From: Waterburya sp.
Lineage (GTDB): Bacteria > Cyanobacteriota > Cyanobacteriia > Cyanobacteriales > Xenococcaceae
DNA: 64,000 bases
Assembly: GCA_965217895.1 (NCBI GenBank)
Contig: CBDCJV010000002.1
Coordinates: 2,496,001 to 2,560,000, forward strand
Reading direction: 5' to 3'
The stretch's first letter is position 1; every line of letters begins with the position of its first letter. Positions 6,893-52,387 of the stretch are shown here, in pieces. The notes beneath the pieces were generated by a model. The model saw only the letters and a list, made by a program, of their open reading frames with translations. It was not told the DNA's origin and did no database searches. The translations under genes and the position numbers were made by a program.

Positions 6893-7166
6893 ACTCTTTC
6901 CTCTACACAGTTTTTTGCTTAGTAGCTAATGCTAAGGGCTTTAGAGCATGAAGTCTAGATGTATTTGATTAATCGTTATGTTTCACCAACGTATTTTGCT
7001 TAACTGACCAATTAAAAACAGTTCTGGATAACCATGAATTAGCCAGACACAAAGATACAGAATAAGCTGAAATTCTGGTTGTTTCGTCAGTTGAAATAAC
7101 AATTCTTGGGTAAAATAATCCTCGAAATCGTCTTAACCTGAACCGATATTAAGCTGAAATATTTAC

Positions 7167-7468
7167 CAACTCCGAAGGAGTTGAAGTAGCAAGTAGAAGC
7201 CGCGTGGAGCGGCTCGCCTGCACAAAGTGCAGTCGGCGAACTCCAGTTCGCGCAGATAGCAATTAAGAAAAACTCCGAAGTTGGATATGCAGCCTCCTCA
7301 TTCATGAGGAAAAGGTGAAAAAATAATTCAATTCTTGAATACATGCGGGCAAGCCCTTTGTCTGACTTCAGGCAGAGGTTGAACTTGCAGACGCGCTTCG
7401 CGTCTGGCCGTTGCGGAGCAACGTCGGCAGCCTCCAGGCTGCGCTACTTGCTATCTGCTACTTGTGAA
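7167..7468. mobile_element. 302-bp non-autonomous palindrome-rich element inserted in the last codons of lysC
   Basis: Shares both termini (TTCACAAGTAGC... and ...AACTCC-NNN-GGAGTTG) with 51551-51800; removing it restores lysC ...GGEER-VNISA-stop (TAA at 7149-7151). Confidence 0.8.
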
Positions 7469-9262
7469 CCGTTCTTCTCCTCCTAAACCAAAAGCCTCGT
7501 GAACTGCATTTAAAGCTTTGATTCCTTCAGATTCGGCAATCACACAGCTAATTTTAATCTCAGAGGTAGTAATCATTTGAATATTGATTTTTTCATGAGC
7601 TAAAGCAGCAAAAAATTTAGCTGCTACCCCTGGATGCCCGATCATTCCTGCACCAACTACGCTTAATTTGGCGATCGCTGTATCCCCTGTAACGGTGCCA
7701 CAGCCAATTTGTTGATTTAGTTCGCTAATTAGCTTACAGGCTTGCTCTGCATCTGCTTGCTCGACGGTAAAAGCAATGTCGCGAGTCGGCACATCATTTA
7801 CAATATGACAACGCTGAGATTGAATAATAGCGTCAACGCTAATATTCTTTTTCGCCAGGAGGGAAAATATTTGCGCTGCCATCCCTGGAGTGTCTGGGAC
7901 GTGGCGGATGCCAATTTGAGCCTGTTTGGTGTCTAGAGCCACTCCCCTTACGGGGGGATGTTTTCCTGGATACTTATTAACAGCTATTTCTTTTTGAGAG
8001 CTTAGATCGATGTCAAAAGCCTGAGAAAGCAAGTGTAAAGCGCGATCGCATTCTGATTCATCAATGACGCAGCTAACTTTAACTTCAGAAGTGGAAATCA
8101 TCTGAATATTAATCTTGGCATCAGCTAGAGTCTTAAACATCTTCGCCGCAATACCAGGACGACCAATCATCCCCGCACCAGAAATAGCAACTTTAGCAAT
8201 TTTGCGGTCAACCATCACTTCCGCTTCTGTAGTGGCAGCGGGATGAGTACGCAAAGAAGGAGCGATCGCTTCTGCTACTGCTTCTGCCTGTTGCAGTACT
8301 CGATTAACGACGGTAAAGGCAATGTCGTTACTGTTCCCCTCATGAATTGACTGAATAATTAAATCTACGTCAATATTACGCTGGGATATTTCCCCAAACA
8401 GACTAGCTGCCACACCAGGAAAATCTGGTACTCTTAATAAGGCAATTTTTGCCTGATCTCGGTCTACTTCTACACCGTCAACCGCCTTGGCAATTTCCAT
8501 TCCCTGTAAAGAACGAGGTTGAGGTAAACGGGATACTACTTTTGTTCCAGGGCGATCGCTCCAGCTAGATAAAACTATTAGAGGCATTCCATAATTACGA
8601 GCAATTTCCACGGCGCGGGGATGTAATACTTTTGCTCCTAAACTAGCTAACTCTAACATCTCATCAGCAGTAATTTCTGACATCAGTTGTGCAGAGGGAA
8701 CAAGCCGAGGATCGGTAGTCAAAATTCCAGGTACGTCGGTATATATTTCGCAACGATCTGCTTTGAGTGAAGCTGCTAAAGCCACGGCTGAAGTATCTGA
8801 GCCACCTCTACCTAAAGTCGTAATTTCAAAATCTTTGATGCTGCTAACTCCCTGAAAACCCGCAACTACAACCACTTCTCCTTTATCAAGGTGTCTCTGT
8901 AGGCGATCTGTAGATACCTGCAAAATTCTGGCACGATTATGTTCAGCTTCGGTGACAATTCCTACCTGCGCTCCTGTCAAGGAAATAGCTGGCTGTCCCA
9001 ATTCCTGTAACGCCATACTCAAAAGAGCAATAGTAACCTGTTCTCCTGTAGATAAGAGCATATCCATTTCCCGACGGGAAGGATTATTTGATACACCCTT
9101 AGCAAGCTTGACCAAAGTATCTGTGGTTTTTCCCATCGCCGAAACCACAACTACTAAGCTGTTTCCTTGCTTTACGGTTTTTTGCACCCTATTGGCAACA
9201 GCTTGGATGCGCTCTATTGAACCAACAGATGTTCCGCCGTATTTCTGAACAACTAAAGCCAT
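7451..9262 (-). CDS. lysC: Aspartate kinase (cyanobacterial type with 4 ACT domains)
   Basis: [31 protein letters not shown], repeated ACT domains ([28 protein letters not shown]). Confidence 0.97.
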
Positions 9263-46382: not shown

Positions 46383-46722
46383 TAAGTGACGTTACGCATT
46401 TAATCTGACTGCTGTGACGGGGTGACGGGGAGCGTATTCACAAGTAGCAAGTAACAGATGCGTTTCGCCTCTCGACTTTCCTTCGCAAAGGCGGCGAACG
46501 ACCGTTCGCGCAAGTAACAAGTAAAGATATGCAGCTAGTTAAACTGTCTGAATAGCTAGTTAATTTTGCCTCTACTTCCGAAAACTTTTTACTGTCTTGG
46601 TGCGCGTTCCCTTGCGCCTGACGGCGACGAGGGGTCGCACCGCTTTTTACTTTTTACTTGTTACTTCTCCAAGTCCCCAAGTCCCCAAGTCTTACAGATC
46701 GATGAGTGCGCAACATCAGTTA
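46383..46722. mobile_element. Second MITE copy (family of 9385-9538) carrying nested small repeats
   Basis: Termini TAAGTGACGTTACGCA and TGCGCAACATCAGTTA; contains TTCACAAGTAGC at 46437 and the 46584-46664 repeat. Confidence 0.72.
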
Positions 46723-50356: not shown

Positions 50357-50813
50357 TTTGAGCGAGCCTTCGCTGAATAATTTAAAAAGGTGGAAAGCTT
50401 ATTCATTGTTGCTCGACCAATATTAAGTCCAAATTGCGATTGCCTTAAATTATACTTAAAAGAAGCATTAGAACTAAAGCTAGTACCTATAAAAACACCA
50501 AACGAAAGTTGCCGCTACAGCAATAATAGTTAGCAACTAGGAATAATTAATTTGATAATTGACAAAATTCTGGCATTTATAATCTATAGGACTTACGCAC
50601 TCGCCCCCTAAATCCCCCAAGGCGAGCGACCCCCGCGCATGGTTCAACAGTTTGACGGGCGGTATAAACGTCGCAGCAAAGCTACGACGACACGCCCTTC
50701 TCAACGGGTAGGGCTGTTTCATTCTCTAAAAAAGAAATGCGATCGCGGTTGCGGAGCAAGTCCGAAGGACTCAGCTAGCCGAAGGCATCACCAGCGAGAA
50801 AAAATTATTGCTT

Positions 50814-51144: not shown

Positions 51145-51189
51145 CTCCCTGTGTGAATTGTTGCTACAGGCTAAAGGTAATTCTTATAT

Positions 51190-52342
51190 AGAAGCCATTT
51201 GGGATCTTGGTAAAAGAGGTATAATCAGGTCAAAATGCCTTATTCAAGCAGTTTGACCGATAAAGAGGGGGAAATTGTTGAACCCCTATTGCCTAAGAAG
51301 AAAAGAACCAAGCCTCCAACATGGAGCAAAAGAGAAATCTTGGATGGGGTTTTGTATCAACTCAAGAACGGCTGTAACTGGTGTGATTTACCGAAAGATT
51401 TACCACCTTACTCAACAGTATTTTGGCATTACAAACAGTGGCGAGGACAAGGAGTAATCGAAGATATCAGGGATGTATTACATGGTCAAGTCCGTCAACA
51501 AATAAAAAAAAACCAAATGGACAACCTTAATCATAATCGATTCACAAGCGTTCACAAGTAGCAAGTAGCAAGTAGCAAGTAGCAATTTTACCTCTCGTTA
51601 AAACAAGAGGATTGAAACAAAGAAATGTGTTTTATTTTTTTTCGTCTTTAAAGAGCGCAACGCGCAAGCGTTGCCAGTCGTCTTCAACGACGATCTGAGC
51701 CTTTCAGGCTCTGCGCTTTAGACCAACTTCGGAGTTACTTAATTGCTATCTGTTATCTGCGCGAACTCCACGCGGCTGCTACTTAACTCCGAAGGAGTTG
51801 GTAAAAAATACTTGTAACGCCAGTGTAGAGTCTAAGGGGTTTTGTTTTTACAAATCTACGAACGGAATTAAGAGGCATTTAGCGGTAGATACTTGGGGTT
51901 TTCCTTTCTTGACTCACTGCACCAAAGCTTCAGTGTCAGATGATCTGGGTTTAATTGAAATGTTGTCAGATAACATTGATTACTTCAAATCGAAGCCTGT
52001 CAACATTCCTAGGATAACCATTCTACTTGACAATGGATACCACCCAGAAAAATTAATCCAGGAGTTGACCAAAATTTAGCCTCAGATCATGACCAAGAGC
52101 AAATTTTTGCTCTCGCCCAAACCGTCGAAAGCACAAAAGAAAAAGGAAGGAAAAACAGGATTTGTACCAGTTAAAGCTAGGTGGGTTATAGAAAGAACCA
52201 ATTCCTGGATGCAAAGGTGCAAAAGTTTAGTCAAGAATTTTGAAAGAACTCTTGAGAATGCCACCACCGAGATTAACCTTTGTTTTGTCAGACTGATGCT
52301 CAAAAGATTAGCTGCTGGTTAGATAGATCCCAAATAGGTTCT
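51190..52342 (+). mobile_element. IS5-family insertion sequence, inactivated
   Basis: TIRs TAGAAGCCATTTGGGATCT / AGATCCCAAATAGGTTCTA (17/19); transposase pieces MPYSSSLTD...WCDLPKDLPPYSTV, IIDSQA|VKNT, RWVIERTNSW; 250-bp insertion and premature TAG at 52077-52079. Confidence 0.92.
51551..51800. mobile_element. 250-bp non-autonomous element inserted into the IS5 transposase
   Basis: Lies exactly between codons GCG (Ala of DSQA) and GTA (Val of VKNT); same termini as 7167-7468. Confidence 0.85.
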
Positions 52343-52387
52343 ATAATAAATTGATAATTATTGCTTCCCGTGTTGGTAGACAATACT

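Follow-up and report, generated by a model that had tools for sequence, protein, structure and literature searches.

How did the aspartate kinase gene lysC come to end inside a repeat, and by what means does that repeat move? In the window (the whole stretch of 64,000 nucleotides analysed here) the last codons of lysC lie within a 302-bp element, and a second copy, 250 bp long and followed by GTAA at 51801-51804, sits in the transposase gene of an IS5-family element; the boundaries of both had been drawn correctly from the letters alone (Table 1). The element is a gene-less repeat lying 3' of TTAC, with hairpin ends of IS605 type and no target duplication, and one copy of it has replaced the tail of lysC. 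At a probability that we put at roughly 85%, it is a PATE (palindrome-associated transposable element), a non-autonomous IS200/IS605 derivative whose single-stranded form would be mobilised by a TnpA of that group acting in trans. This reading rests on a constant target in the flanking DNA, exact empty sites, covarying hairpins, left-end homology to tnpA/tnpB elements, as well as covariation between guide and target. It is unusual in its lengthened heptamer linkers, its nested hairpin modules, its TGAA end and the decayed guide of the lysC copy.

The lysC insertion can be read against its empty site. The enzyme, which matches 3L76 over residues 1-599 (E 4e-261), now ends in EERFTSSR*, with the five final codons and the stop inside the element, and the corresponding locus of a sister genome (G017, locus L023), the one relative in the genus with the exact empty site, is uninterrupted and ends in EERVNISA*. 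Contigs of runs X4 and X9 likewise pass through the site without the element, and the swap of VNISA for FTSSR that had been deduced from excision of the repeat is thus confirmed, with the length of the protein unchanged. We found lysC in 17 of the 18 relatives searched within the genus, and among the 28 of 30 loci listed, all 17 carry a five-residue tail of the pattern [VI]-x-[VIL], of which FTSSR has lost the second hydrophobic residue, and two more distant relatives (L049 and L050) have a LysC with no tail, suggesting that the tail is dispensable. The change is probably tolerated, and its effect on the enzyme is probably small. The case illustrates how a scarless insertion can recode the tail of a housekeeping enzyme while preserving its length. 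Two further insertions, at C2:4636344 (-) and C2:724221 (+), also hit long open frames within one or two codons of the end; as the target contains TAA, gene ends may be favoured points of insertion.

A tabulation of flanks across the 5.29-Mb cyanobacterial genome (G000; 11,760 matches to the HIP1 octamer on both strands), which the sequence-only reading had proposed, returned 28 copies of 167-362 bp with 17 distinct flank pairs, every copy directly 3' of TTAC and with TGAA as its right end. When the genome was searched with the terminal hairpin and no condition on the flank, (N)GGTAA came next in 20/20 loci, which, given a background frequency of GTAA of 0.005 per position, is not chance; a covariance model of the core, including neither end, recovered all 28 of these copies, plus a single additional match of low score. 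The target had earlier been given as TTTAC, of which TTAC is conserved but the preceding base is not (T at position -5 in 14/28), and the base after the cut is unbiased, with C at 7/28 sites. The absence of a target duplication, noted earlier, is borne out by exact empty sites and by the junctions: of 28 distinct sites, 17 from G000 and 11 from three sister genomes, 27 overlap by at most 2 nt, the single 7-nt overlap falling within a heptamer run. Furthermore, an empty paralogue of another site (C2:169468) places the cut directly 3' of TTAC, again with no duplication, and assigns the variable base near the hairpin to the element. Empty sites and flank tables together locate the fixed tetranucleotide in host DNA, outside an element that has neither a protein gene nor terminal inverted repeats, its termini being dissimilar and its inverted arrays subterminal.

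These junctions bear on an alternative in which the family is a conventional MITE, moved by a DDE transposase that would use the inverted heptamer arrays as its terminal repeats. Close to the two ends the arrays do make up an inverted repeat of 11-15 bp, and 14 of the 28 copies lie in DDE elements, but empty sites free of duplication, a one-sided fixed target and a fixed orientation, as well as repeats that are subterminal and vary between lineages while the ends stay constant, render it barely credible. Group I and II introns, IS110/IS1111, IS607 and IS91 were considered and rejected from the sequence, since the 5' flank has no constant base, a common crossover core is missing and the cut motifs at the ends are dissimilar.

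The 14 copies in DDE elements are divided among three host types, IS5 (three copies) and two that we take from their motifs to be ISAs1-like (eight) and IS4/IS701-like (three), with one position per type, from which it is probable that they multiplied together with their hosts. In all three types (e.g. window 51187-52345) every near-complete host copy bears the element at that one position, no empty full-length copy of any of them was found in G000, and in the eight-copy host the module content of the inserted element varies from copy to copy. Restoration of the IS5 reading frame upon excision, as claimed earlier, fits the sequence, but no empty full-length IS5 copy in G000 corroborates it and the transposase bears an additional stop codon at 52077-52079. 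Elements of the IS200/IS605 group are biased towards the lagging-strand template; the GC skew of G000 is flat, too flat to place an origin for a test of replication-strand bias.

Table 1. Features of the two window copies of the putative PATE and of their host loci (window coordinates)
Feature	Position	Strand	Remarks
Putative PATE, copy 1	7167-7468	+	302 bp, IS608 orientation; left end 7167, right TGAA 7465-7468
Terminal hairpin (6 bp) in left linker	7168-7182	+	Loop inverted relative to other copies
Left heptamer array, AAGTAGC type	7183-7270	+	Nested hairpin modules form block 7198-7251; array starts with NAAG (+17 to +20), possible replacement guide
Inverted near-copy of left terminus	7271-7284	+	Remainder of ancestral left linker
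Ancestral left guide position and left subterminal hairpin	7289-7310	+	AAAG decayed to GCAG
GAAT guide and subterminal hairpin of the right end	7337-7378	+	Split by 20-nt insert (7341-7360) in the subfamily of the lysC copy
Right heptamer array	7379-7468	+	Three nested hairpin modules; ends in TGAA
New lysC end, FTSSR*	7451-7468	-	Supplied by the right array
lysC, aspartate kinase, 603 aa	7451-9262	-	Pfam AA_kinase and ACT; last five residues from the element
Original final five lysC codons and stop (VNISA*), now cut off	7149-7166	-	Includes the target; flank translation, G017/L023
Target TTAC, host DNA	7163-7166	+	Present in empty site; 17/17 sites of the genome
Putative PATE, copy 2	51551-51800	-	250 bp, left end 51800; within IS5 transposase gene
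Host IS5-family element, DUF4096 and DDE_Tnp_1	51187-52345	+	Three near-identical copies, all with the putative PATE

Read from the TTAC, the element comprises in turn the terminal hairpin, a heptamer array, an inverted near-copy of the terminus, the AAAG guide with a hairpin, an AT-rich spacer, a GAAT or CAAT guide with a second hairpin, the inverted heptamer array and TGAA. The core from hairpin to hairpin is near-constant at about 97-98 nt and is common to both window copies, whose interiors, described earlier as different, are homologous and carry distinct inserted modules on a shared skeleton. The AACTCC/GGAGTT hairpin singled out in that description is present, but as a lineage-specific addition to the left linker that is absent from G149, G122, G514, G491 and the short forms, and the subterminal hairpins homologous to those of IS605 lie about 70-130 nt inside. 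In the core hairpins 93.8% of cells are paired and both sides have changed in 39 cells; slid controls reached at most 57%, and none of 500 shuffles scored as high, a control that overstates the covariation as the sequences are related. For a whole copy, folding predicts a single long stem in which the two arrays pair (z of -4.8 for RNA and -5.6 for DNA), a stem missing from the centroid structure of the shortest copy.

Copies vary in size through short palindromic modules chained within arrays and hairpins, and of the 16 module motifs, seven are present elsewhere in G000 as well. The heptamer is the same at left and right within a lineage and differs across lineages (five unit types; 9/9 of 14 examples), and 26 of the 73 clusters of the heptamer dimer in G000 lie in the element. 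Hairpin loops are frequently inverted from copy to copy, as would be expected from template switching in single-stranded hairpins; for the terminal hairpin, three loop types account for 22, 5 and 1 of the 28 copies, the lysC copy being the single one. From guide to cut the distance is 33-130 nt at the left and 27-90 nt at the right, far beyond the linkers of IS608, which speaks against a simple IS608-like arrangement, and there are also short-linker forms with 16 nt, one of which (L182) may be the ancestral form or, equally, a deletion between short direct repeats. Two other features of the window deserve mention: a third element (46437-46650, +) shares the TTCAC start, the heptamer array and the modules, yet its core differs and GTAA is missing at its end, and a small cluster of hairpin modules at 50739-50800 adjoins a HIP1 octamer, resembling the SDR-in-HIP1 pattern as far as it is set out in the available text of PMC4390886.

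To which transposases the ends belong can be asked of the guide and target sequences, which change together. Among loci found with the core model, and thus unselected for their flanks, AAAG accompanies TTAC in G482 (12/12) and G036 (2/2), and AAAA accompanies TTAT in G149 (12/13) and in G122 (8/9 script-parsed of 14 loci; 11/14 by eye), where an empty host repeat confirms the cut for the TTAT type. G491, G137 and G108 are noisier, with guides and targets mixed, several single loci were unparsed, and the guide change in G149, G122 and G514 may reflect common descent from one event. The pair that changes joins the fourth guide base to the last target base, as predicted by the guide and target sequences of IS608 in the available text of PMC5934647; the first two guide/target pairs are given in that of PMC3201880. 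At the right end, CAAT/TGAA in G149, G122 and G514 (13, 9 and 7 parsed copies) would, set against the GAAT/TCAA of the parents (20 loci parsed), represent a double change that preserves pairing, and GAAT with TGAA, one mismatch, is found in 12/12 copies of G482 and in many other copies of the family. In G000 the lysC copy and five other sites (6/17) have no AAAG at the ancestral guide position and are still 3' of TTAC.

Parental elements carry the same left end. A left-end pattern search of the host's cyanobacterial family found seven tnpB-only elements among 30 loci, and one locus (L419), with a tnpA remnant beside the same left end, pointed to elements with tnpA and a divergent tnpB; three parent TnpA proteins pass NF033573. 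The IS608 pairing rule is obeyed by 24 of 26 left ends of tnpA and/or tnpB elements (29 loci given) that were parsed by a script allowing only four guides and four targets. In the two exceptions the pair of the first guide base alone is broken, and the same pair is loose in G514 (3/9 copies, by eye) and at the right end of the G482 copies. A profile of the left end matched 13 of 25 tnpA/tnpB loci at E<=0.01 (best shuffled match E 1.3), a match that is not independent since the parent loci had been found by the left-end pattern, and the right-end profile matched the parents weakly (best E 0.18). The earlier proposal of a non-autonomous element mobilised by an IS608-like HUH enzyme is supported by the empty sites, by the left end that it has in common with autonomous IS605 elements and by guide/target covariation.

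The same comparison of ends speaks to a derivation of the family, or of its right half, from ISC (IscB/IsrB) elements, which would make it the remnant of an omegaRNA locus still moved by a Y1 enzyme. This origin is improbable: although IsrB loci begin with TTCAA(C/T)AA, a hairpin and ATTG, i.e. the end and guide of the wider family, and one IscB locus (L105) has GTAA next, the left end matches tnpB/tnpA elements, and when 124 loci of TnpA and IscB/IsrB were scanned with end profiles, no terminus of an IscB/IsrB element emerged. Rfam, HEARO included, gave no match at the gathering score in the window and, on five loci, none at E<=10 beyond chance hits, and there is no RRXRR match in G000. At L105 (G076), an AAGG-type guide stands 3' of IscB at a putative boundary where GTAA follows rather than the usual ATGA, and upstream of IsrB at L111, L120, L122 and L214 the omegaRNA region is interrupted by a sequence resembling a group II intron at its 3' end.

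Of 151 genomes from the order, 26 have matches to the core model, and these represent at least 12 families. Copies number at least 12 in each of G149, G122, G514, G482, G491 and G108, and G149 harbours at least 27 near-identical ones. The left end occurs in named records that include Waterburya, Pleurocapsa and Calothrix. Searched across all species genomes, the exact terminal-hairpin pattern returned 15 loci, six of them cyanobacterial element ends and none of the 15 with a transposase gene; a looser pattern applied to a draw of 401 genomes of the phylum gave 15 loci outside G000, none an element end. A BLAST search of plasmids with two family members as queries gave no useful match, and the empty site of one G149 copy was not found in five related genomes.

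What, then, could supply the transposase? No IS200-type TnpA scored over the cut-off in the complete genome G000, nor in G149 despite its many copies; G019, of the same genus, and G482 have one each, and G122 a divergent one alone. G000 does contain one intact and two broken RAYT-like genes (RAYT, REP-associated tyrosine transposase), which come with other repeats, and a lone tnpB. The intact RAYT-like gene (C2:3520726-3521277, -) includes a REP in its open frame, and at a distance of 2 kb lies a paralogue that is broken, the pair of genes between the two paralogues being presumably toxin-antitoxin-like; its motifs are those of subclass 2.4 as described in the available text of PMC6006769. As the sole intact HUH gene found, it invites the view that the element, behaving like a REPIN, is at present mobilised by a resident RAYT through the GTAG of the heptamer arrays, in line with copy expansion in genomes with no IS200 TnpA over the cut-off (G000, G149) and with the similarity of one module to the core of this gene's REP. 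However, the repeats flanking the two RAYT-like loci are of other kinds and not, as the sequence-only reading had suggested looking for, the hairpins of the element, lineages with GTAG-less arrays behave alike, and target choice tracks the IS605 guide; on such comparisons a RAYT appears unlikely as the mover, and we regard this reading with strong doubt.

Six other gene-less elements with canonical IS605 ends are present in G000 (C2:1420365, 1451181, 1493121, 1779108, 2848129 and 4908075), with TTAC or TTAT targets and, in five, a parsed TCAA right end; in the two whose full sequence was examined, the heptamer arrays stand between the hairpins, not outside them. Such elements point to a TnpA that was once active in this genome and has since been lost. 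With the TnpA apparently lost from G000, its copies are probably dormant, or mobile solely inside host IS elements.

In a model built by analogy with IS608, TnpA would bind the two inner hairpins and guide pairing would direct cuts after TTAC and after TGAA, the excised strand being circularised and then inserted after another TTAC. Both linkers would have gained heptamer arrays and palindromic modules, and pairing of the two arrays could extrude the extra DNA as a loop while preserving the likeness of one array to the other. Certain subfamilies within the genus, among them that of the lysC copy, have a decayed ancestral left guide, and an NAAG at the foot of the long stem may serve instead. 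This NAAG, at about +16 to +20 and hence at IS608 spacing, is present in the copies with a decayed guide; as it is also the mere start of the heptamer, a replacement guide is put forward tentatively. Some flexibility in spacing is tolerated by another IS605 TnpA, according to the available text of bioRxiv 10.1101/2023.03.14.532601. A bolder extension, possible but doubtful, is that the element zips itself up: the mirror-image arrays would pair the ends of the strand, stay identical through copying from arm to arm, and have given rise to the new guide at the foot of the stem. If so, the family would be a HUH-driven vehicle for two kinds of cyanobacterial repeat with an unexplained means of dispersal, the STRR heptamers and hairpin modules of SDR type.

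Several consequences follow for PATE-type transposition in general. Retargeting of the IS608 type would occur naturally, one guide base and one target base changing together in genomes; peel-and-paste ends could tolerate, or fold away, linkers several-fold longer than the textbook length; and part of the clutter of heptamers and small palindromes in cyanobacterial genomes would have a testable route of origin.

By the tests run, the element is not IS608 itself, not ISC and not a REPIN, and the literature searched, in which writings on cyanobacterial mini-elements were covered in part, holds no description of the family. Some members may already be in print as unclassified MITEs: the 'type II MITEs' of Anabaena sp. 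90, which have three sets of inverted repeats (available text of PMC3542288), could belong here, and two family motifs are absent from the part of that paper's supplement covered.

Like IS608 of Helicobacter pylori, as described in the available text of PMC5934647 and PMC3201880, the element uses TTAC, has AAAG and GAAT at the 5' feet of its hairpins and follows the same pairing rule. Unlike IS608, in which the linkers are given there as 19 and 10 nt and C follows the cut in about 70% of cases (PMC5934647), it ends in TGAA rather than TCAA, has much longer linkers, shows no preference for C after the cut and lacks tnpA and tnpB. The cyanobacterial IS605 (tnpA and tnpB) and IS1341-type (tnpB only) elements, such as L449, L467, L085, L429 and L439, share its left end and its guide/target variants, and in L429 and L439 the right hairpin is similar as well, whereas their left linkers of 14-16 nt and TCAA ends set them apart. 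ISC elements too are mobilised by Y1 enzymes with no duplication (available text of PMC4810608), and some cyanobacterial IsrB loci have the same TGAA/CAAT right end, but the element has no IscB or IsrB gene and no HEARO match. The closest parallel is with the PATEs of Haloquadratum walsbyi (PMC3119063), inserts of about 110 bp, and of Geobacillus (bioRxiv 10.1101/2023.03.14.532601), which in the available text of both papers are likewise gene-less, have no terminal inverted repeats, make no duplication, share subterminal palindromes with IS605, keep the target motif outside and are often invaded by smaller repeats. Relative to these PATEs, both linkers are here extended by mirror-image heptamer arrays and by hairpin modules of 15-25 nt. 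For these additions the likeness lies within cyanobacteria themselves, where Elhai et al. in 2008 reportedly described STRR heptamers and the SDR repeats, SDR1-8 being dispersed palindromes of 21-27 nt. Compared by description, they share with the element the habit of nesting short palindromic modules in heptamer runs and in one another.
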